Of a stretch of DNA of 64,000 bases, positions 10,801 through 59,565 are shown piece after piece. The notes beneath the pieces were generated by a model. The model saw only the letters and a program-made list of their open reading frames with translations, was not told the origin of the DNA and did not search any database. The stretch comes from Candidatus Adlerbacteria bacterium (GTDB lineage: Bacteria > Patescibacteriota > Minisyncoccia > Phycocordibacterales > SBAW01). A program made the position numbers and the translations under genes. The stretch covers positions 96,644 through 160,643 of the forward strand of contig CAINNF010000015.1 in NCBI GenBank assembly GCA_903851045.1. The letters run 5' to 3'. Within the stretch, counting starts at the first letter, position 1. Each line of letters opens with the position of its first letter.

Positions 10801-12333
10801 TTATACGAAACCAGGGAAGAAGTCACTCTTGATCTTTAGTCGGGAGACTCCCATGCCCGTGAGCGTCTGTTTGAACGCTTCGACCATCGCATGCGGTCCG
10901 GATATGTAGTACGTGCGTTCGAGGTAGTCGGGTATCTCCTGCTGGATAAGCGCCGCGTCGAGCGAATGGTTGAACATCCCTGGTATCGGCTTGGTCTCAC
11001 CGCTGAGCGCGTAGACGGTCTTGATACCGAGCTCGGTCTGCGCGCGATCGAGAATGGGTTTGTAGGCGACATCCGCGGCGGTCTTGTTCGCATAGAGTAC
11101 GACGACCGGGCGCGCGTCTTTGGTGTCGAGCAAGTACTGGATCATGCTGCGAAACGGCGTCATACCGATACCGCCCGCGATGAACACCAGTTTCTTCTTC
11201 GGGTCCTTCGGCAGCACGAAGCCACCCGCGATGTGCGACGCCGCTATCGTGCTCCCCACCTTCATCGAAGCGAGCGCACGCTTGAAGGTGCTCGACGGCG
11301 AATAGAACTTCACCCCGAGCCGCACCTGCCGCTCCGTCGGTGCGGACGCTATCGTGAAGTAGCGACGATTCCCGCGGTTGTCCGGGTACTGATGCCCAAG
11401 CGTCCACTCCATGTACTGCCCCGGCCGGAACGTCATGCGACGATCGGCATTGAAGACGAAGTCGTACACATCGTTCGCCTGTTGTTCGATGGCGGCAAGG
11501 GTCAGGATGTATCGACCCTTCGGACTTACGGCCCACGAGAACACGTTACCGACCAAGAGCGCCAACTCCGGCGTCATATAGAAGGTGCCGATGTGGATAT
11601 TGGGAGCGAAGAGGAACCCGACAATCGCACCGTATGCGACGCGCAGCAGCATGGTCGGTGGTGTCGTGAGCGGCTCCGTGAGCATCACGAACGCAAGAAA
11701 GAATATCGACGTATGCAACACCGGCACGAGAGGAGTGACGATGTCGGTCGGGAACCCGGATGACGACATAAGCTCCGTCGTCACCAGCGTGACCGCGAAG
11801 AAACTGCCGACCAAGTCGAAGCGACGGATCTTGCGCACCAAGAGCAGCCCACCGACGATCACGAACGGCATCAGATAGGTGTTACCGCCCACCCACCAGG
11901 TCGCTGGCTGGTTGATGACAAGTGCCGTGAGCGCGACCGCGAACGCGGCCGGATTGAACAGATGCTTCTTGCCTATCGCAAAGATGTACTTCGCCGCCAT
12001 CGCCCACACCGAAGCGAACACAAGGAAGCCGACACCCGCATGGTCCGTGGCAGACACTGGTGTGATGATGAGTGCGAGAATGAGCGCCGTGATATAGACC
12101 GATTCGACGTTCGTCGCCGCCTCGAACACCCGCGCGAACACAAGGTTCGTACCCCAACACACCGCAAGGATGACAAGAGCCGAGAACGCAAGCTGCGTCG
12201 CATCGAACGGGACCAGGTTGGCGAAGAACCCAAGCACGAACGCCACCACGAGTAGACCCACCAAGTAGTACAGTACGAGACGGTACATGGTGATACGATT
12301 CAAAAAAGTGTCGATGGAGGTCATGGGGTTCAT
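10801..12333 (-). CDS. NqrB/RnfD-like polytopic membrane domain fused to FNR-like FAD/NAD(P)H oxidoreductase domain
   Basis: The N-terminal ~300 aa are multi-TM and include LFNPAAFA (NqrB/RnfD-like). The C-terminal part has RRYFTIAS (RxYS FAD-binding) and GGIGMTPF (NAD-binding). Start and stop overlap apbE (ATGA). Confidence 0.8.
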   Translation of the reverse strand: MNPMTSIDTFLNRITMYRLVLYYLVGLLVVAFVLGFFANLVPFDATQLAFSALVILAVCWGTNLVFARVFEAATNVESVYITALILALIITPVSATDHAGVGFLVFASVWAMAAKYIFAIGKKHLFNPAAFAVALTALVINQPATWWVGGNTYLMPFVIVGGLLLVRKIRRFDLVGSFFAVTLVTTELMSSSGFPTDIVTPLVPVLHTSIFFLAFVMLTEPLTTPPTMLLRVAYGAIVGFLFAPNIHIGTFYMTPELALLVGNVFSWAVSPKGRYILTLAAIEQQANDVYDFVFNADRRMTFRPGQYMEWTLGHQYPDNRGNRRYFTIASAPTERQVRLGVKFYSPSSTFKRALASMKVGSTIAASHIAGGFVLPKDPKKKLVFIAGGIGMTPFRSMIQYLLDTKDARPVVVLYANKTAADVAYKPILDRAQTELGIKTVYALSGETKPIPGMFNHSLDAALIQQEIPDYLERTYYISGPHAMVEAFKQTLTGMGVSRLKIKSDFFPGFV

Positions 12334-20942: not shown

Positions 20943-21013
20943 GTCACATGGAGGGTATCGTTTTTACGCAAGCATTTTTGGAATATGCTTTTATTGCATA
21001 ATGCTTTCACCCC

Positions 21014-21048
21014 TCCCGCGAAACATCCCCCCGCAGCTCGATAGCTCC
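21014..21048. repeat. 35-bp direct repeat, copy A (TCCCGCGAAACATCCCCCCGCAGCTCGATAGCTCC)
   Basis: 34 of 35 positions are identical to copy B at 22606-22640. Together they bracket the purC-purE fusion gene. Confidence 0.8.
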
Positions 21049-21093
21049 CTTCGGGTCGACTTCTACATACTATCAACGTAGACACAAGACGAA

Positions 21094-22481: not shown

Positions 22482-22605
22482 CACCATTCCCCTTTCGTGG
22501 GATATGTGGTTGATCGAAAGAAACAAGTCCAAAAATACCCTACTCGAAAAACAGAGGCTTCGCAACAACACTAAAGGCGCTCACCAAATAGTTGCACCTT
22601 AACCT

Positions 22606-22640
22606 TCCCGCGAAACATCTCCCCGCAGCTCGATAGCTCC
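22606..22640. repeat. 35-bp direct repeat, copy B (TCCCGCGAAACATCTCCCCGCAGCTCGATAGCTCC)
   Basis: See copy A. Lies in the divergent region upstream of the purC-purE gene. Confidence 0.8.
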
Positions 22641-22736
22641 GTTCTTGGCCTGGCATACATGGTCGTCGCAGGTGTCTTTACATACAATAATAAATATGTT
22701 ACATAAGTACTGGCAACCTGTTCTGGGAGAACAACC

Positions 22737-23469: not shown

Positions 23470-25248
23470 CTAGAGCGTTTCGATAATTTTTGAAAGTAGC
23501 TGAGTTATACGCACTTTTGTTGTGTCAGAAAAATTACTCAATTTTATTTTCTCTTCATTGACTCCTATCATAAAATCTCTAGCGACAATAACTTTAGATA
23601 GCTTTGCAGCTTTCATAAACTCAGAATTTGTCGTAGCCTCATGGTTAGCATTATTTGATTTGAGGACAACATGATTAAACTCATCTCGAGAAAAAAGATC
23701 TTCAATTCCTTGGCAACCGTCGATCTTTATAAGTTTTTTCTCCTCACAGACCATGGAATCCTTTAGCTCTTTAAGAACTTTTCGTCCATGAGGTTCATCA
23801 TCAAGCACAATTGAAAAACTAAGCCCCCAACCGAGCATGAGATTTGCCAACAAAGGGAGATTCGCGCATCCGGTAGCTGGCAAAAAATTGACAGTCTCAC
23901 TTTTTGAACAAAGTTTCCAAAAAGCTTTAAAATAAAAAAACGCTGATATCTCTTCCAACAAAACATTATTACTTCTAGAAATCACAGTCTGATGAGATAC
24001 GTCTATCCCCATGTTTGTGTAGAGAGGCATCAAAGTGTCCATAGAGGCGCTTCCGAGGTCTTGAAAAGGAATAATTCTTGTCTCACTTTTTTCATCCTCA
24101 GTATCTGTTCGCTCAATTGCCAAGATACGATAGACCTTATCCATATCCAGCAAATACGGAGAATGGGTCGTGAAAATTATTTGAAGATTTTTCCTTTGCT
24201 TCTCAAACACCCTAAGGATATCCTCCTGCGCTTTGGCGTGTAGATTAGCTCCCGGTTCGTCTATCAAGAAAACCCTGCCTCCCCCTCTCCTCGCAGAAGC
24301 CTCAAGTTTTAAATAAAACGAAATAAACCATTTAACCCCCTTGCTTCGCTGGGCTGGAGACTGGCGCCCATTCTTATCCCTAATCCAAAATATAAGGTAT
24401 GGTTGTCCGGGTTTACCTAACTCTGAACTCTTGTGGTATTTTAACTCCAAGACGATCTCTATTTTGTCTTTCTTCCCAACCGTCTGGTGCCAATATTTTT
24501 GCAATTCAACATTTACCTTTTTACTTTGCACTTCGAGAAAGTCATCAATGAGGCGGACACTCGAAGGATTCAATAGATCCTCTATCTTTACGTCAGCTAT
24601 ATATAGAAAATTCTTTGCACCCTCATAGCCTAGAGCTTTTGTGTTTTTCTTCACTAAATCATCGAGATCAATTGTGGGAGGGAGTAAGCTGTCTTCTTTA
24701 AATATGTCTATACTTGGCAAACTATTAAATAATTCATCCACAAAATCACTTTCCTTTATTAAAACAAGTCTTTCGACTCGCTCAGAGATTTCTTCTAGAC
24801 TTTGGGTGGTGGTGTTATTTCCAACCTGGCTCTTTTCAGCCTCGGCAAAATTCTGCCACACACCTCTTAACTCTTCGTTCTCTAGAACCAACTCACCACC
24901 CTCGTAGTTGCCTGACTCCCATACCCTTTTCAAAGCAATACACTTTCCAATTTTCTCAAAGACTTTTTTGAAATTTTTAGGTAATTCTTTACCTTCAGAT
25001 AAACACTCTTGGAGTTCTTCGAGACTATCGAACTTAAAAATACAGGTAACTTCTGGCATTAAACCAGTGCTCCGAATATCATCTTGGTATACGTCCCCGG
25101 TTTCAAAGGCATGGATACCATCCAATACCGAAGATTTTCCTGACTCGTTTTGTCCAACAATAAGCGAAATCCCATCTGGTGACAAATCCTGAAATCCAGT
25201 ATCAATAATTGATCGAAAGTTTTGAATCCTGAATGCTTGTAATCGCAT
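23470..25248 (-). CDS. OLD-family endonuclease-like protein: N-terminal ABC-type ATPase (AAA_15/21-like) + C-terminal TOPRIM-like domain; AT-rich island
   Basis: N-terminus MRLQAFRIQNFRSI; Walker A GQNESGKSS; Walker B/D-loop RVFLIDEPGANLH; H-loop IIFTTHSP. C-terminal VLLEEISAF and IVLDDEPHG are TOPRIM-like E and DxD motifs. GC is about 40%, against about 56% in the flanks. Confidence 0.8.
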   Translation of the reverse strand: MRLQAFRIQNFRSIIDTGFQDLSPDGISLIVGQNESGKSSVLDGIHAFETGDVYQDDIRSTGLMPEVTCIFKFDSLEELQECLSEGKELPKNFKKVFEKIGKCIALKRVWESGNYEGGELVLENEELRGVWQNFAEAEKSQVGNNTTTQSLEEISERVERLVLIKESDFVDELFNSLPSIDIFKEDSLLPPTIDLDDLVKKNTKALGYEGAKNFLYIADVKIEDLLNPSSVRLIDDFLEVQSKKVNVELQKYWHQTVGKKDKIEIVLELKYHKSSELGKPGQPYLIFWIRDKNGRQSPAQRSKGVKWFISFYLKLEASARRGGGRVFLIDEPGANLHAKAQEDILRVFEKQRKNLQIIFTTHSPYLLDMDKVYRILAIERTDTEDEKSETRIIPFQDLGSASMDTLMPLYTNMGIDVSHQTVISRSNNVLLEEISAFFYFKAFWKLCSKSETVNFLPATGCANLPLLANLMLGWGLSFSIVLDDEPHGRKVLKELKDSMVCEEKKLIKIDGCQGIEDLFSRDEFNHVVLKSNNANHEATTNSEFMKAAKLSKVIVARDFMIGVNEEKIKLSNFSDTTKVRITQLLSKIIETL

Positions 25249-25298
25249 AATGGTACAAATCTACCACATTCCTTTAAATAAAATAGCAACAAGACATA

Positions 25299-25964
25299 TT
25301 ACTTCGGATTTTTGATGAGCCCGACCACTTTGCCGCTGATGGAGAAGTCATCGTCTTCGTGGATATAAATGGGCTCGTAGTCGAGGGAGGACTCGGCTTT
25401 GAGGACTATTTGGTCGTTTTCTTTTCGGTCGTCTATGTAGCGCTTGATGGTGGCTTTGTTGTCGACCAAGGCTAGGACTATGTCGCCGGTTGAGGCAGTG
25501 CGGCTTTCGCTGTCGACTATGACATAGTCGCCGTCGTCGATGCACTTCTCGCCCACCTTCGCGCGGTTCATGGAGAGGCCGTCGGTTTTGATGGCGTAGA
25601 GGCCGCGCGGGCGGGAGCGGCCGACGAGGCGGCTGGAGACGCGGAGGAAGCCTTGGAAGTTCGCCTCCGCGAAGATAGTCGCGGGGCCGCAGTTGGCGGT
25701 GCCTATGACGGGGATAGAGAACATGCTCGTTTTGTTTTCAAGCAAGCCCTTGGACCATGTCGGCGTCGTGGCGGCGCGGGTCATCACGCCTTTGGCGCGG
25801 TCGAGCGTGACGAAGCCTTTTTTCTCGAGCTGGAGAAGGTGGTGTTTGATCTTCTGCGGAGCCTCCTGGGGGGCGCCTATGAGCCGCGCGACATCACGAA
25901 GCGAGAGCTTCGCTAAATTTTCGCTACGGGAGAGCTCGAGTATTTTCTCTTGGATCTCGTGCAT
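25299..25964 (-). CDS. lexA: LexA-like repressor (N-terminal LexA wHTH + C-terminal S24 peptidase)
   Basis: IQEKILELS...HLLQLEKKGFVTL is a LexA DNA-binding domain. GLSMNRA (Ser) and KRY (Lys) form the S24 catalytic dyad. It is 50 nt upstream of the OLD gene on the same strand. Confidence 0.8.
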   Translation of the reverse strand: MHEIQEKILELSRSENLAKLSLRDVARLIGAPQEAPQKIKHHLLQLEKKGFVTLDRAKGVMTRAATTPTWSKGLLENKTSMFSIPVIGTANCGPATIFAEANFQGFLRVSSRLVGRSRPRGLYAIKTDGLSMNRAKVGEKCIDDGDYVIVDSESRTASTGDIVLALVDNKATIKRYIDDRKENDQIVLKAESSLDYEPIYIHEDDDFSISGKVVGLIKNPK

Positions 25965-46974: not shown

Positions 46975-47508
46975 ATGACCACACCCTTTCTTATCCTTGT
47001 CGACGGGCCGATGGGTTCGGGCAAGACGACCACGACGAAACTGCTGAGCGAGAAGCTGCCCGACGCGGCACGAGTCGCGTTGCCGGATATAAAAAGACTC
47101 GTCCCCAACTACCGGGAGAACGAGCAGACGCTCACAGTGATCCGGGAAGTGATGCGTGTGATGATCGACACTTATCTTAAGTTCGGGGTGAGCGTCATCG
47201 TCGAGCAGATAACGCGAGCCGAAGGCGTTGCTTTGCTTCGAAAAATCGCCGAGCAACACGGTGCTACGTTCTCTGCCTACCGACTCACGGCGCCGAAAGC
47301 CGTTCGACTGAAACGGGTCCACGAGCGGACGCGAGAGATGCTGGGCGTGCCAGCACTCCCCCAGTCAAAGATCGACGAGCTATCCAACTACTTCGAACCG
47401 AACGACGCATTCTATACCAACAATCCCGTTGACGCCGCTGAAACGATCGATACGCAAGACATGACCGCGGAGCAGGTCGCGGAAGTTATTCTAAGCAAGC
47501 TATCGTAA
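46975..47508 (+). CDS. P-loop NTPase, nucleotide/small-molecule kinase-like (AAA_33/zeta-toxin-like fold)
   Basis: Walker A GPMGSGKTT at the N-terminus. Confidence 0.65.
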   Translation: MTTPFLILVDGPMGSGKTTTTKLLSEKLPDAARVALPDIKRLVPNYRENEQTLTVIREVMRVMIDTYLKFGVSVIVEQITRAEGVALLRKIAEQHGATFSAYRLTAPKAVRLKRVHERTREMLGVPALPQSKIDELSNYFEPNDAFYTNNPVDAAETIDTQDMTAEQVAEVILSKLS

Positions 47509-50069: not shown

Positions 50070-50600
50070 ACATTCTATAGAACTGCGCTGAGGCACATAA
50101 GTCACCCTTGAGTATCTCTTTCCATATCCCACCCTCACACATCGCACTACTTTTATAACACCAAAGAGTTGGCTAGTGGACGCAAGATAATCTTTCGAAA
50201 ACAGTACCAATATGCAGACAAAGTACGAAAAACGAACCTCCATGTGGGAACTGTGGGGATCAAAGATAAAGAGAATTCACGCAGATACGTAGAAGCCAAA
50301 GACACCTTTATGACCCACTACACCCAACACGTGTCCCGCGACCACTAAGGAATATGTAGAAAAAGAAATGCCGCTTAGAATATAAGCGGCAAGGGTGGTT
50401 TGAGCTTGTCCAGTATTTTCCCCGAGGCACCACCAGGGAATTGTTGAACGATCACCGCCAGCAGTGGCCACCCAAGAAGGGTCGCGTCATTGTCCAAAAA
50501 CTACTCTTGGACCCCACGCCCACCTGACGTTCAGAGCTTAAGCCCGTATGATTGCCCAAACCATCCATATCTAATCACACTCCAACAAAAACACAAACAT

Positions 50601-50630
50601 GGAAATTGGGGAGGCGTCCAATTGATTACG
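50601..50630. repeat. partial tandem copy of MITE left end (GGAAATTGGGGAGGCGTCCAATTGATTACG)
   Basis: Exact duplicate of the first 30 bp of the adjacent element. Confidence 0.8.
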
Positions 50631-50640
50631 TGGAAATTGA

Positions 50641-50778
50641 AATTGGGGAGGCGTCCAATTGATTACGATTTACTGTGGTCTAATGGTAATCTCCATCCGC
50701 TATGTTAATCAATGTAGCATAGCAGGAACCAATTACCACACCACACGATTTTCAAATTAAACGGACGCCTCCCCATTA
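50641..50778. mobile_element. MITE-like 138-bp element, copy 1, with 12-bp terminal inverted repeats GGGGAGGCGTCC...GGACGCCTCCCC
   Basis: About 140 bp identical to copy 2 at 53614-53753. No coding capacity. Intergenic. Confidence 0.75.
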
Positions 50779-50860
50779 TTCCATTATTCAGGAAAGGAAA
50801 GAAAGGAAAAGGCCACGGTTACTTGATTAACCGTGGCCCAGTATCGCCGGAGCGTGTCGG

Positions 50861-51943
50861 CTAGCGCTCGAACGCTCTTCCCGCTATCCGCTTGTAGAGC
50901 GCGGCAGTGTTGCCGCGCTCACCCTCGAAGTGTGAGGTACGGATGATCCCCGCAAGAATCTCAAGGCGCCAATCATACCTGGCGGTCCCCGGGTCGGTTA
51001 CCGAGGTCAGGATAATGATGCCTTTCGGGCCATAGAACTCCTGGAAGATGATACCGAGGGTTCGTCTCCAATATTCAGGCGCTTGCGCGTCGAACAGTAT
51101 CTTAGCGAGGCTGGGATCTTTGCCGAGCGCCTCCAGCACATCCTCTTGCATCTGCTGGAGGAGTGGGGAGACGAGGTCGATGTCGCGATGGTCGTTGTAG
51201 ACCCTGTTGACACCACGCAGGTCGGACCTCATCCACACGTCCGTGAGCACCCCACTCACGAACCCATGACGAAACCGAGGACCATGCATCGTACCGAATC
51301 CATGCAGCCAATGACCGTAGTAGTAATCGTGGCTGATGTACCGACCCGAACGAGCATCTTCGACGTGGGCCAAAGTCCAGGCGGTCACAAGTGTCTGAAA
51401 CGCAGACGCCAGGTCGGCAACTTTCTCGAAGAAGGAATTCGAAGGGTTGCCCGCGTAGGCGTCGTCTGGGCCTTCATATCGAAGGTACAGGGTCTCGTTA
51501 TCGTGACTGAATCCAGCTTCGGCTTTCGCCCATTCGGGAGAACCCTGCTCAACCTCAGCGATCGAGAAGAAGCCACCAAAGCCAGCGTCGCGTCGAGGGA
51601 AGATGGTGGTGAAATAGTACACCGTGCGGTCTCCCGCATGCACCTTGACCTCGTCGACCTCGATCACACTCTTTTGGATCACCGTGTCGGCGAGATGGAG
51701 TCTCAGTAGACGGTCTCCCTCCCTCAGCTCATGCAGATTCACCCACCTCAACCTCACACCGAACATGCCGTCGGTGATCCCGAGTTGACCTATGTCGGCC
51801 TTGATCCGTTCCAGATCCTCGCGTCGAGGTCTCCGTTTGCCGGGAACCAAAATTCGAGAGGACTGTCCATAGAGATACGGCGCGATGTCGACGAGATCGT
51901 CCTCGCTTCGGACTTGAATAAGCGGTTTACCCATTTTCGCCAC
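50861..51943 (-). CDS. hypothetical protein (360 aa), no recognised domain
   Basis: Long ORF with good coding statistics. Last gene of the MITE-bracketed cassette. Confidence 0.55.
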   Translation of the reverse strand: MAKMGKPLIQVRSEDDLVDIAPYLYGQSSRILVPGKRRPRREDLERIKADIGQLGITDGMFGVRLRWVNLHELREGDRLLRLHLADTVIQKSVIEVDEVKVHAGDRTVYYFTTIFPRRDAGFGGFFSIAEVEQGSPEWAKAEAGFSHDNETLYLRYEGPDDAYAGNPSNSFFEKVADLASAFQTLVTAWTLAHVEDARSGRYISHDYYYGHWLHGFGTMHGPRFRHGFVSGVLTDVWMRSDLRGVNRVYNDHRDIDLVSPLLQQMQEDVLEALGKDPSLAKILFDAQAPEYWRRTLGIIFQEFYGPKGIIILTSVTDPGTARYDWRLEILAGIIRTSHFEGERGNTAALYKRIAGRAFER

Positions 51944-52047
51944 CTCCTTAGTGCAGCGTTTTTAAGGGCGATAGTACCCAAAAACATAATATCACACTCT
52001 AAATACATATGTCAACAGGTTGTCGGGGAACATAATTTCCAGATCAA

Positions 52048-52716
52048 CTAGACGGCTCCGTAAGCTTCCGATGAAAGCGCCCCGAGATAGTCCCACAGTT
52101 TGGTGATACTTTTTTCTCTCGTCCAAAAGTTCAGGATCTTCTCACGAATGTCCTGATGCTGCGGATAGCCTTCGTCGTATGCTCCCTCGGGCATCAGATC
52201 TTTACACTCCACATTAAGCAGGACGGTGAGCGACTCTTTGAGATCATTATACTTGAGCGCTCCCAGTCGCTGCTCTTCGTCTGGGCCCAGACCATACCAT
52301 GTGTAGAAATGCCACAGCTCATGCATCGCTATCTTGCGTGGATAGAACACCGGCACCGTAACGAAGAAAAAATCGTTCTTGATGTTGTATGGGCGGCGGT
52401 TGTTGACCGTGAGATACGCATGTATGTCACGAGGAAGAGATACGCCAAAAAGAGCCTCCGCCCGTTGTTGGTACTCCCCCGCAACCGTGTCCCAGTCCTG
52501 TTGGTACTTGCGTATGTGTTCCTGAACATCGATACCCTTTTCGGCGATATACGCACGAACGAAACCCTCGACCATCTCGAGTGTCGGATCCTCGCCGCAG
52601 CGTGCCACCAACTGCTCATACACCCGAGTCGGCACCGAGGAGTTGTTCGAACTCTTCCCCTTGTTCAGGAGACACCACACATCCTTTCCTTCATCGTATG
52701 CAAAAATGACTTTCAT
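52048..52716 (-). CDS. hypothetical protein with HExxH motif (putative metallopeptidase-like)
   Basis: ATG at 52714-52716 with AGGAAA SD. IAMHELWHFYTWYG contains HExxH. Confidence 0.5.
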   Translation of the reverse strand: MKVIFAYDEGKDVWCLLNKGKSSNNSSVPTRVYEQLVARCGEDPTLEMVEGFVRAYIAEKGIDVQEHIRKYQQDWDTVAGEYQQRAEALFGVSLPRDIHAYLTVNNRRPYNIKNDFFFVTVPVFYPRKIAMHELWHFYTWYGLGPDEEQRLGALKYNDLKESLTVLLNVECKDLMPEGAYDEGYPQHQDIREKILNFWTREKSITKLWDYLGALSSEAYGAV

Positions 52717-52802
52717 GTTTTTTCCTAACAATATCTGGCAACATCAGAAATGAAGGAACCTATAGCCTACTGGGACTTTGGCACAAAGATCTCATGTAGA
52801 CC

Positions 52803-53381
52803 TTAGGATGTCCTTGCCAACGTTTTCAGCTCTGTGACCAACGGCCGCTCGTCTCCTTCAAAACTCGTTACCATCGCCTGCAAAAAACGCTCGGGGTCGA
52901 GTCGGTCGAGATTAAGCGGATGGCCAGCATGGTCGGCAAGGAGCAAGAGAAAGGATGTCTGCACACGGCCATTACCCTCACGAAATGGGTGGATCGCGTT
53001 AAGTGTCGCAAGAAAATGGGCAGCACGCTCCGCAAACACGTCGGTAGAAAGTCCGCAGAGATAGTCCTGACGCTTCAGTTCATTGAACAGTGTTTGCATC
53101 TCTTGGTCGATATGCTCTGGGTAGCAAAATGCGCTACCACCCTTGCCGATACGCACCGTGCGAAATTCTCCCGCCCACGAATACACATCCTGAAAGAGGT
53201 GGTGGTGAATGGCACAATAGTGAGTGACATCAAGCAGCCCGAGCGGAAGCGGTTCGTCAGAGCGCTGAGTGGTCATAGCCGCCTCAAACTCATCGAGCAA
53301 GTTTTGCTCTCTGCTATCGAGCAGATTCTTAAGAACTGTCGTCCCTTCGTAGCAATAGATATCTTGTACTGCGTCGTACAT
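52803..53381 (-). CDS. fic: Fic/Fido-domain protein (AMPylator family)
   Basis: Canonical Fic motif HPFREGNGRVQTSFL. Confidence 0.85.
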   Translation of the reverse strand: MYDAVQDIYCYEGTTVLKNLLDSREQNLLDEFEAAMTTQRSDEPLPLGLLDVTHYCAIHHHLFQDVYSWAGEFRTVRIGKGGSAFCYPEHIDQEMQTLFNELKRQDYLCGLSTDVFAERAAHFLATLNAIHPFREGNGRVQTSFLLLLADHAGHPLNLDRLDPERFLQAMVTSFEGDERPLVTELKTLARTS

Positions 53382-53390
53382 GGTCTGGAG

Positions 53391-53591
53391 TTACCGAGCG
53401 TACTTCTTGGAGATAGCTTGGCGTCTGTCTGCGTGAGAGAGATTCTTCTCCTCGAACACTTGAAAGTCCTTGCGCATCCCCGGAGTCAAACTGATACCCT
53501 CCACAGCGCTAATTTTAGCGAAGACCTTGCGACCAATAGTATAACTTTTGGGTATGTTTTTCACATTCATATTGTACCACACATCACCCAT
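53391..53591 (-). CDS. small protein upstream of fic (candidate Fic antitoxin/inhibitor)
   Basis: 66-aa ORF with its stop 7 nt before the fic start. Contains ISAVEG, which resembles the [ST]xxxE[GN] inhibitory motif but is not an exact match to it. Confidence 0.45.
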   Translation of the reverse strand: MGDVWYNMNVKNIPKSYTIGRKVFAKISAVEGISLTPGMRKDFQVFEEKNLSHADRRQAISKKYAR

Positions 53592-53613: not shown

Positions 53614-53753
53614 GAAATTGGGGAGGCGTCCAATTGATTACGATTTACTGTGGTCTAATGGTAATCTCCATCCGCTATGTTAATCAATGTAGCATAGCAG
53701 GAACCAATTACCACACCACACGATTTTCAAATTAAACGGACGCCTCCCCATTA
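53614..53753. mobile_element. MITE-like 138-bp element, copy 2
   Basis: Identical to copy 1. TIRs at 53620-53631 and 53738-53749. Followed by CATTACC(C) tandem units. Confidence 0.75.
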
Positions 53754-53786
53754 CCCATTACCCATTACTGGACACCTCCCCGTTAC

Positions 53787-54389
53787 CTAGAGTCCTTGGA
53801 CATAGGGCGCTAAGGGATAGTACTCAAAGAGCGACTTACCTGATGCATCCTTACAGGATGCGATTTTGGCTGTGATTTGTGCGCGTTGTTGCGCAGAGTC
53901 AGCGTTCTTTACACGAACGATCTCCTTTTGATCTTCACTCGCCATGGCGAGTTTCCCTAGGTCATTACCATCGACCGAGTATTGGTCGACATAATCTTCC
54001 ATATCCATCATTAGAAATGTCTTATCGGTACATACGAAATGCGTCCTGTAGATGGACGGGTTCATGTCGACATACGCCCCTTTCACCAAGGAATTGAAAA
54101 TGCCCGTTGGGGCCAAGATTACCACAAGCACTAAGACGAGCAGTACCAGCAGAGTCAACACATACTGCTTGCGTATATACAGCACCCAACTCAACAAGAA
54201 AAGGATCGCTGGATATATAGCAAAAAATTGGCCCCAAGCGATGAGGCCTGCATACATGTCCCCTGGCGTGTCGTGCTGCATACCGAGCACAAGCAGTAGA
54301 GGCTCCAAGCCAATACCGACGACCCCCAAAAGGATAAGGAGTATCTTTGCAATCTTCCTATAATCCATACTAACCAGTATAACGTACAA
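53787..54389 (-). CDS. polytopic membrane protein (hypothetical)
   Basis: N-terminal half has 4 TM helices. Confidence 0.5.
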   Translation of the reverse strand: MYVILVSMDYRKIAKILLILLGVVGIGLEPLLLVLGMQHDTPGDMYAGLIAWGQFFAIYPAILFLLSWVLYIRKQYVLTLLVLLVLVLVVILAPTGIFNSLVKGAYVDMNPSIYRTHFVCTDKTFLMMDMEDYVDQYSVDGNDLGKLAMASEDQKEIVRVKNADSAQQRAQITAKIASCKDASGKSLFEYYPLAPYVQGL

Positions 54390-56091: not shown

Positions 56092-56165
56092 TGGCTGCGA
56101 GACTAGGATTCGAACCTAGATAGACAGATTCAGAGTCTGTCGTCCTACCATTAGACGATCTCGCA
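56092..56165 (-). tRNA. tRNA-Gln (anticodon CUG)
   Basis: Manual cloverleaf: acceptor UGCGAGA/UCUCGCA (U1-A72, G73), D-stem CGUC/GACG, anticodon stem ACAGA/UCUGU with loop CUCUGAA, T-arm CUAGG-UUCGAAU-CCUAG. CCA is encoded. Confidence 0.8.
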
Positions 56166-58287: not shown

Positions 58288-59565
58288 ATGCGCACGAACA
58301 GCATCGACCAACTCACACGCTTCCTAAGACAGCCGATCGTGCTGTCCGTGGTATTGGGGGCGGCGATACTTGGGACCGGAGCGTACTACCTACTCCATCA
58401 GGCAACACCGCTCCCGCCTCACGATTCGTTGCAGACGCCGCCACAACGAACCTCCTCTGAGACTTCCTCATCCACACCAAACACTATAACCACCCACACC
58501 CCACCACAAGCCGATGAGGCTGTGGTCAGTTCGATATCGGACACAAATACTTCCGCCACCTACACTCCGCCACAAGCCGATGAAGCTGTGGTCAGTTCGA
58601 TCCGCTGGAAACCTCTTACGAACGCCAAACCGATGCGGGTGATAGACCGCAAGGACGACACGGTGAGCGTGTACGCCGTCGGGACCTTTACCACTGGCAC
58701 ATACAACAACAAGATACTCGCGCTGTATCGTGACCGCACCGGTGGTGACGACGCTGGGTATGGCTACTTTATTTCTGACGCATCGGGTACCCCTATTGCG
58801 TGGGATACATCGCTCTTGGTCGATTGCATGGAGATGGGAGGGTGCGCCCCGACGTACCCGGCTCAATGGCATGAAACCGCTGAACCAAAGATTGGCCTCA
58901 CCGATCTCTTACACACTACACTGTCCAGTGTCCCTGCCGAGTTATATACCGACTCCCCATTCATCACCCAGACCAAAAAAGCTTCTTTCCTTTCTGGCAA
59001 CGTGGACTTCACTGCCACCAACACACCAGGACAAGTCGTCGACATCACCGTGAGTGGCTCTACACTTGTGCGGACACTTGTCACACAAAGCGACTATCAA
59101 GCGCCATTCCTCCCTACATATGCCTATACGTTGCAACTGCCGTTCGGAGTTACCGAATCGGCATCGCTCGTGCCCCCATTCTTCGCGCACGACCCTTGGA
59201 AGCAGCGTCCGCCAGATATATCGTGGTCGACCGGGAGCACGAGCGTTGTCCGATATGATTGGTATACTCCCGAATATTATGCGGGACATGGTATACCAAG
59301 CTGTATGACCGGTATATCTTTTGCGCAAGCGCGAGCGGCGTTCATCATAACTGGCCACACAAAGGATGGCGAGCCTCTCTATGAAATAGACCCGGCCACA
59401 TATCCGAGCGTCAACCGATGTTTGAGTAAAGAAAGAGAAAGCACATCTACTCCGGACGAATTAGCCACGGCACATCCGCTCTTCTTCTGGCAAAGTCCGT
59501 ACGGCGAATGGGAAGCGTTTGTACGCTCCGACATACTTTCGACGGCGTGGTTTGGCCACGACTAG
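58288..59565 (+). CDS. membrane-anchored extracytosolic protein with internal 21-aa tandem repeat
   Basis: TM helix IVLSVVLGAAILGTGAYYLL. TPPQADEAVVSSI appears twice, corresponding to a 63-nt tandem repeat in the DNA. Confidence 0.55.
   Translation: MRTNSIDQLTRFLRQPIVLSVVLGAAILGTGAYYLLHQATPLPPHDSLQTPPQRTSSETSSSTPNTITTHTPPQADEAVVSSISDTNTSATYTPPQADEAVVSSIRWKPLTNAKPMRVIDRKDDTVSVYAVGTFTTGTYNNKILALYRDRTGGDDAGYGYFISDASGTPIAWDTSLLVDCMEMGGCAPTYPAQWHETAEPKIGLTDLLHTTLSSVPAELYTDSPFITQTKKASFLSGNVDFTATNTPGQVVDITVSGSTLVRTLVTQSDYQAPFLPTYAYTLQLPFGVTESASLVPPFFAHDPWKQRPPDISWSTGSTSVVRYDWYTPEYYAGHGIPSCMTGISFAQARAAFIITGHTKDGEPLYEIDPATYPSVNRCLSKERESTSTPDELATAHPLFFWQSPYGEWEAFVRSDILSTAWFGHD

Follow-up and report, generated by a model that had tools for sequence, protein, structure and literature searches.

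We analysed a 64-kb stretch of DNA from a Candidatus Adlerbacteria bacterium (contig CAINNF010000015.1), referred to in its whole length as the window, and focused on four open reading frames (ORFs) on its minus strand that lie between two copies of a 140-nt repeat. An earlier note on this DNA, made from the letters alone, had described four co-oriented minus-strand genes between two copies of a miniature inverted-repeat transposable element (MITE), and the ORFs and the repeats are all present. The first in the direction of transcription is a small FicA-like ORF (53391-53591, 66 aa) with an FAKISAVEG helix and a C-terminal RR; homologues favour a start near Met8 (53570), which would probably give a protein of 59 aa. 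Its stop is followed by a gap of 9 nt, not 7 nt as first counted, and then by the ATG of fic (52803-53381, 192 aa), which encodes a class I-type Fic protein with the core HPFREGNGR and a C-terminal TSFEG. Next are an ORF for a protein with an HExxH motif (HELWH; 52048-52731 from a TTG, 52048-52716 from an ATG) and an ORF for a protein of 360 aa (50861-51943 from a GTG; 50861-51934 from an ATG, giving 357 aa). Public-contig gene calls and the N termini of homologues favour the shorter starts of both, so that the protein described earlier as a 227-aa HELWH protein keeps its motif but is 222 aa long from the ATG at 52716. The region is also present at 100% identity in a freshwater metagenome-assembled genome (MAG; GCA_903951275.1), a 202-kb scaffold and several other assemblies.

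The four genes do not travel together. In 80 metagenome loci carrying Fic relatives at 37-80% identity, tblastn and profile hidden Markov models (HMMs) found neither an HExxH nor a 360-aa homologue (0/80). Likewise, no homologue of the 360-aa protein or of the small ORF was found at 46 HExxH loci with 6-kb flanks, and none of the Fic, small-ORF and HExxH genes occurred near members of the 360-aa family in three contexts (L004, L005 and L052). The earlier note had proposed a Fic module extended by the HExxH and 360-aa proteins, an idea that it made dependent on the four genes co-occurring elsewhere, and in the loci examined they never did. Nor do the genes form a single operon, as the 360-aa gene has its own promoter before it and its own terminator after it. 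On the evidence of sequence and gene order, the four genes are not a conserved system, and we consider it likely that three independent units lie side by side: a FicTA-type pair formed by the small ORF and fic, the HExxH gene and the 360-aa gene. The HExxH gene would be a separate gene for a predicted cytoplasmic, metallopeptidase-like protein of the gluzincin fold, the 360-aa gene would be a separate monocistronic orphan, and two identical 140-nt MITE-like repeats would occupy the intergenic regions on either side of the three units.

A Fic pair without the second arginine

The Fic protein matched the Pfam Fic family (PF02661, E = 1.4e-21), the NCBIfam Fic and VbhT models (2.4e-40 and 2.8e-36, both under the equivalog cut-offs) and, in the PDB, EcFicT (5jfz) and VbhT (3shg), with E values of ~1e-30 over residues 2-178. 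These matches place it in the VbhT/EcFicT subfamily, that of the class I FicTA pairs VbhT/VbhA of Bartonella schoenbuchensis and EcFicT/EcFicA (Fic/YhfG) of E. coli, and, like those proteins, it is a single domain of ~190 aa. It also matched the PADLOC PDC-S04 model PDLC04838 over its full length (E = 4.7e-71), PDC-S04 being itself an unvalidated candidate, whereas the match to SoFic was weak (9e-08) and confined to the Fic core. The likeness to FicTA extends to the partner: an ORF of ~60 aa lies immediately upstream in the same orientation, its helix ends in E-G followed by a hydrophobic residue, and the C-terminal helix containing RR is shared. Unlike the FicTA antitoxins, the small ORF went undetected in searches of Pfam, NCBIfam and the PDB (single-sequence and profile searches), and it had no match in PADLOC or PHROGs.

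With tblastn, 33 or more of the 80 loci showed a homologue of the small ORF directly before fic on the same strand, and with the HMM 50 did; the spacings range from an overlap to ~12 nt. Like known FicTA pairs, this one also occurs on plasmids: it lies between repA and mobQ on a Rhizobium plasmid and is found on a Phenylobacterium plasmid, the same gene order being present in NZ_CP121658.1 (the repA-mobQ interval) and NZ_CP101284.1, where the NCBI labels are "hypothetical protein" and "Fic family protein". The toxin-antitoxin-like module of the earlier note is thus borne out at 33-50 of the 80 loci and on two proteobacterial plasmids, and at the level of sequence the class I FicTA-type pair that the small ORF forms with fic is real and conserved. 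In a related genome (L056:4652-6118, compared with window positions 10801-12276), only ~2 kb separate the Fic pair (71% identity) from the homologue of a gene that in the window (10801-12276) sits 40 kb from the pair. The chromosomal position of the pair thus differs among related organisms. Its presence on Alphaproteobacteria plasmids beside replication and transfer genes, together with its differing chromosomal contexts, suggests that the pair is horizontally mobile.

The pair departs from known FicTA systems at the second arginine (R2) of the full Fic motif, HxFx(D/E)GNGRxxR. The 12-residue motif of the Fic protein is HPFREGNGRVQT, in which the first nine residues are canonical, as had been noted, but R2 is a Thr. 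We compared the motif in 67 Fic relatives, 38 without an Arg at R2 and 29 with one. All relatives at ~50% identity or more read HPFREGNGRxQ followed by T, L or M, and not ...GNGRxxR as in FicTA, and the partners of these R2-less proteins read F-A-[KA]-I-[ST]-A-V-E-G. More distant relatives kept R2, and their partners were canonical (for example, ASLACEG, ATMSMEG and GSLRIEG). ISAVEG-type partners accompanied 25 of the 38 R2-less Fic proteins and none of the 29 that contain R2. The residue at position -4 from the partner Glu was I, M or L in all 31 cases with T, L, I or A at R2, and S or T in 14 of the 15 script-scored cases with R or Q at R2; the sole exception, L125, proved to be a mis-picked motif, and the real motif, located by eye, has Thr. 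The small ORF does not fit the partner motif [S/T]xxxE[G/N]: it reads I-S-A-V-E-G, in which Ile occupies -4, where FicTA antitoxins have [S/T], and Ser occupies -3; this arrangement is kept in 25 partners. ISAVEG, one Leu and RR are conserved in an alignment of 25 small-ORF sequences. The R2-less Fic proteins keep the His, Phe, Glu, Gly-Asn-Gly and first arginine (R1) of the motif, and the partner Glu is invariant. No compensating basic residue was found at positions specific to the R2-less group.

The VbhA and EcFicA sequences used for the canonical helices agree with the residue numbers in PMC5033356. According to that study, R2 of EcFicTA and VbhTA is hydrogen-bonded by the Ser at -4 and salt-bridged by the Glu (PMC5033356), and in uninhibited Fic proteins R2 binds the gamma-phosphate of ATP in its competent mode (PMC3667792). 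As R2 and the Ser at -4 are both absent, neither of these two inhibitory contacts can form here. The Fic protein described here, which lost R2, differs from EcFicT-like proteins, which lost R1 and not R2 (PMC5033356). A survey describes another, small group of Fic proteins without the last Arg (GNTR motif), in which the inhibitory helix is modified (PMC4454073). A limited literature search returned no description of the R2-less group with ISAVEG partners.

By homology with VbhTA and EcFicTA, the Fic enzyme would modify a cellular target, and the small protein would clamp it by putting the Glu of FAKISAVEG into the nucleotide-binding site. Judged by its E-G and its helix context, both of which are kept, ISAVEG is the same helix as the canonical one with a different residue at -4, a variant and not an absence. 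The earlier note had read the motif as one residue short; its unusual spacing is real and conserved, but on this reading no residue of the canonical motif is missing. In the subclade, Thr, Leu or Met stands in place of R2, and the antitoxin residue at -4, one helical turn before the Glu, is Ile and not Ser or Thr; we read this as the exchange of a polar contact (Ser/Glu-Arg) for a hydrophobic one (Ile with Leu, Met or Thr) with the obstructing Glu kept in place. We suggest, tentatively, that the R2-less Fic proteins and their ISAVEG partners could form a distinct, undescribed FicTA subclass with a rewired contact. Such a subclass may range across Patescibacteria, diverse metagenomes and Alphaproteobacteria plasmids, and loss of the gamma-phosphate anchor could lead to a different nucleotide donor, a different orientation of the nucleotide or a bias towards deAMPylation. 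The subclade has lost the Arg that in other Fic proteins both binds the gamma-phosphate and receives the inhibitory Glu, and its antitoxin appears to have changed in step; it offers a ready-made natural test of Fic inhibition and nucleotide positioning without R2. The [S/T]xxxE[G/N] rule that is used to find Fic inhibitory partners misses this group.

An inhibitory role of the C-terminal TSFEG of the Fic protein, whose spacing the earlier note had also found one residue short, did not survive comparison with relatives: its Glu becomes D, H, G, S, Q, A, K, L or F, and the pattern that remains is SFxG[DN]. As the Glu varies freely, TSFEG is not inhibitory. A class III reading, in which Fic proteins carry a C-terminal inhibitory helix, was rejected, as the spacing of TSFEG is wrong and its Glu is not conserved.

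Loss of R2 also allows a different reading of the pair, in which the Fic protein is not a growth-arresting toxin but an enzyme altered in its donor or chemistry, or an inactive scaffold, and the small protein is a regulatory or structural partner. R2, the anchor of the ATP gamma-phosphate (PMC3667792), is absent throughout the subclade. EcFicT, with a degenerate motif that lost R1, shows no auto-adenylylation (PMC5033356), Doc, without the last Arg, phosphorylates instead of AMPylating (PMC4454073; PMC4177925), and AnkX transfers phosphocholine and not AMP (PMC4177925). However, the retention of the core motif residues and R1, together with the invariant partner Glu, points to an active site that is still functional and inhibited, and addiction modules typically sit, as this pair does, beside genes for the replication and transfer of plasmids. 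We consider this reading unlikely. Two points nonetheless count against a toxin-antitoxin pair with a rewired contact. The role of the Fic protein as a toxin is one that we infer, and loss of R2 could mean that the protein is catalytically altered or inactive; and the covariation between R2 and the -4 residue comes from one large clade and one or two small lineages, and hence from few independent events.

The hairpin repeats

The two copies of the repeat, at 50639-50778 (left) and 53614-53753 (right), neither of them assigned a strand, are 100% identical over 140 nt and lie in direct orientation. Each has imperfect inverted ends of 36 nt with a perfect terminal stem of 13 bp (in the right copy, TGGGGAGGCGTCC...GGACGCCTCCCCA), and the predicted fold of its single-stranded DNA has -29.1 kcal/mol (z = -5.95 relative to shuffled sequences). 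It is short and non-coding, has terminal inverted repeats and forms a hairpin, as MITEs do. We compared it with the Correia elements of Neisseria, with ERIC and with MITE-flanked integrons. Like bacterial MITEs and the composites that they form, it measures ~130-140 nt, is intergenic and has a strong hairpin, and as in MITE-flanked composites, two identical direct copies bracket a block of genes. It departs from known MITEs in that only two full copies were seen in the sequences searched, with no clear target-site duplication at the outer ends and no transposase-bearing element with the same ends in the window; moreover, none of 12 contigs with the neighbouring gene for a 193-aa membrane protein (53787-54368) showed an empty site or a different junction. 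Both copies are flanked by ATT on both sides, where a duplication is indistinguishable from element sequence. The right copy follows the stop of the 193-aa gene after 33 nt and precedes the first ATG of the small ORF by 22 nt; because it fills nearly all the space between that gene and the pair, the promoter of the Fic pair probably lies in the repeat or reads through it.

In addition to the two full copies, one partial and one degenerate end were found, all at this locus. The partial left end (50599-50630) comprises the first ~29 nt of the repeat and is placed 37 nt upstream of the full left copy; the degenerate right end (53770-53781, GGACACCTCCCC), read from the sequence, is preceded by short CCCATTA repeats. 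Neither extra end is assigned a strand. Searches of the whole 64-kb window, of another 8 kb past its left end, of ~0.95 Mb from other loci and of viral contigs gave no further copy. Short tandem repeats of the CCATTA type follow both full copies (50779-50800 and 53754-53781), and these, like the extra ends, may have been left behind by earlier insertions.

The left repeat is separated from the next gene by ~530 nt without a called gene (50070-50600), and the gene calls of the source contig place none between 50070 and 50860. This stretch contains an orphan terminator on the minus strand (50369-50391; 9-bp stem and T-run) with no ORF directly upstream; if the bracketed block is an insertion, this terminator may once have belonged to the 193-aa gene. 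The earlier note had recognized a terminator beyond the left repeat, which is real, but had taken the element to have parted the last gene from it; that cannot be so for the 360-aa gene, because its own strong intrinsic terminator (50810-50839, minus strand; 12-bp stem and T-run) lies inside the bracket, between the gene and the left repeat.

Contigs with the 193-aa gene either go on to the Fic pair or end at the repeat, and several k=141 assemblies break exactly there. One contig of 3,078 nt (L003; ERZ27313172 k141_472307) runs from repeat to repeat with a terminal redundancy of 103 nt, which amounts to one period of 2,975 nt, and a neighbouring contig from the same sample (L141) ends exactly at the repeat boundary. 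We did not adopt a circular element, although formally possible, as the reading of this contig, which is not evidence for a circle because a k=141 graph cannot resolve an exact 140-nt repeat. We also rejected a reading of the repeats as integron attC sites, as no repeat stands between the individual genes and the ends have no R'/R'' core of the GTTRRRY type.

It has to be asked whether the whole block is a composite mobile unit, moved as one piece by a trans-acting transposase at the outer MITE ends or derived from a 2,975-bp circle integrated at the hairpin, with the genes as unrelated cargo. The identity and direct orientation of the two copies, each with its own inverted ends, the partial ends just outside both of them, and the orphan terminator beyond the left copy, placed as if it had once served the upstream 193-aa gene, would fit such a unit, and so would the different contexts of the Fic pair and the 360-aa gene in related genomes and the 2,975-nt period of the repeat-to-repeat contig. 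Yet a k=141 graph gives such a contig wherever an exact 140-nt repeat is present, and the neighbouring contig ends at its boundary. Moreover, there is no empty site among the 12 contigs with the 193-aa gene, no additional copy in the sequences searched and no clear target-site duplication at the outer ends, and the block itself contains no transposase, integrase or rep gene. We regard a composite mobile unit as improbable.

The HExxH and 360-aa genes

The HExxH protein matched no Pfam or NCBIfam family, and its 546 homologues, typically at 55-70% identity, are found in Patescibacteria genomes. H132, E133, H136, E148, E161 and H187 are invariant in the family. The model of the protein (predicted local distance difference test, pLDDT, 93.7) has the HExxH motif on a helix, a downstream Glu ligand and a zincin fold, all of which are features of gluzincins. 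In M1 aminopeptidases and thermolysin, the HExxH motif and the third ligand are separated by x18/x19. Compared with these gluzincins, the HExxH protein is a stand-alone domain of 215 aa with a distinct N-terminal helical part, its sequence identity to them is 7-15%, and its candidate third ligand (E148 or E161) stands at a different distance from HExxH. The protein is most probably a cytoplasmic metallohydrolase of the gluzincin type, small and with a lineage-wide role, and it represents an unannotated gluzincin-like family that is common in Patescibacteria. The 46 HExxH loci have no conserved neighbour; the commonest neighbour cluster, an ABC-type ATPase, occurs at 11 of them and at varying distances. 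The HExxH gene is a separate gene, outside the Fic module.

One HExxH locus does have a Fic gene. In a Paceibacterota MAG (L028:1504-3252, DAOLDC010000011.1), a class II-type Fic gene precedes an HExxH homologue by 96 nt and points in the same direction; its 335-aa product has an internal SSNIEG, the motif HPFLDGNGRSAR and an N-terminal helix-turn-helix (HTH) match (Pfam HTH_5) just under the threshold.

The 360-aa protein belongs to a very rare, unannotated family: it has four relatives among 5.8 billion protein clusters, 27 family representatives were found among 1.84 billion proteins, and a second profile search gave at least five proteins. The earlier description of the protein as one with no recognizable domain was confirmed, as it had no match in Pfam, NCBIfam, PADLOC or PHROGs, nor in the PDB by single-sequence and profile searches. 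The model, of moderate confidence (pLDDT 79.8), has a beta-rich, SH3-like barrel at the N terminus, a helical bundle in the C-terminal part and a terminal helical hairpin. Foldseek found nothing significant in the PDB with this model. The C-terminal bundle bears a weak similarity to HEPN domains, but the Rx4-6H motif that goes with the HEPN bundle does not occur in the family. Compared with HEPN proteins (HepT toxins, TTHA0636 and HI0074), the basic residue of the 360-aa family is at -3 from the His, and the protein has an extra N-terminal beta-barrel region and no MNT partner. The resemblance is weak, and a generic match of helical bundles may account for it. With low confidence, the protein is possibly a nucleic-acid-binding member of an orphan family, and we would put forward a new domain family no less tentatively than the FicTA subclass.

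Upstream of the 360-aa gene, on the minus strand, is a sigma-70-like promoter (51986-52015, TTGACA-18-TATTAT with TG), which agrees with the consensus at 11 of 12 positions and is followed by a conserved leader and a Shine-Dalgarno sequence, AAGGAGGT. A homologue at 68% identity (L004) has TTGACA-17-TATAAT, the same leader and the same AAGGAGGT in a different upstream neighbourhood, and after its stop, in the corresponding place, a terminator hairpin with a different stem sequence. As promoter, Shine-Dalgarno sequence and terminator are all kept in L004, the 360-aa gene is, as far as these signals indicate, a self-contained transcription unit. The L004 homologue is followed by an aspartyl/asparaginyl-type tRNA synthetase gene and preceded by a stretch that is non-coding. 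At 34% identity (L005), the homologue has a gene for a membrane protein on one side and one for threonyl-tRNA synthetase on the other, and at 25% (L052, Uhrbacteria) it is flanked by a cysteine-rich ORF of 246 aa and a gene of the RhuM family.

Some observations weigh against three separate units. Neither a terminator nor a clear promoter was detected in the interval from fic to the HExxH gene, which leaves room in this genome for one transcript that covers both the Fic pair and the HExxH gene. A second adjacency of a Fic gene and an HExxH gene exists in L028, where the Fic gene is the only Fic match in the 46 HExxH loci (~450 kb); because this Fic is of a different class and is a single match in ~450 kb, the adjacency is probably due to chance. 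The contexts of the 360-aa family are three independent ones, two of them on short contigs. Even so, that the four genes make up one defence or regulatory system, with the Fic pair joined by a metalloprotease and a 360-aa effector or sensor, is very improbable: the genes are co-oriented and tightly packed between identical repeats, no terminator separates fic from the HExxH gene, the Fic protein matches the defence-candidate family PDC-S04, the C-terminal half of the 360-aa protein is weakly HEPN-like (HEPN domains being common in defence systems) and in L028 a Fic gene immediately precedes an HExxH homologue, but the genes do not co-occur in the 80, 46 and three loci compared, the 360-aa gene has a conserved promoter and terminator of its own, the HExxH family is 55-70% identical across many Patescibacteria with variable neighbours, and the L028 Fic protein (335 aa, internal SSNIEG, near-threshold HTH) is of a different class. 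The four-gene defence system is not upheld, and no further effort on it is justified.

Other features of the window

A second gene bracketed by repeats encodes a 473-aa fusion of SAICAR synthetase (PurC) and AIR carboxylase (PurE), on either side of which lie 42-nt direct repeats (21011-21052 and 22603-22644) that are 93% identical and matched no Rfam family. At 23470-25964, the GC content is 0.41-0.46 against ~0.56 for the window, and a gene for a 592-aa ATPase of the AAA_15/AAA_21 type (AbiEii-like) stands beside one for an S24 (LexA-like) peptidase; this looks like a horizontally acquired, defence-like gene. Two 58-nt repeats (58478-58601), 84% identical and spaced by 66 nt, are part of a 425-aa ORF (58288-59565) for which Pfam gave no match. 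Finally, a zeta-toxin/AAA_33-like kinase gene (46975-47508) is located 3 kb from the repeat-bracketed block, beside a gene of the Exo_endo_phos family, and is possibly another toxin-type gene in a lower-GC stretch next to tRNA-Gln (56092-56165).

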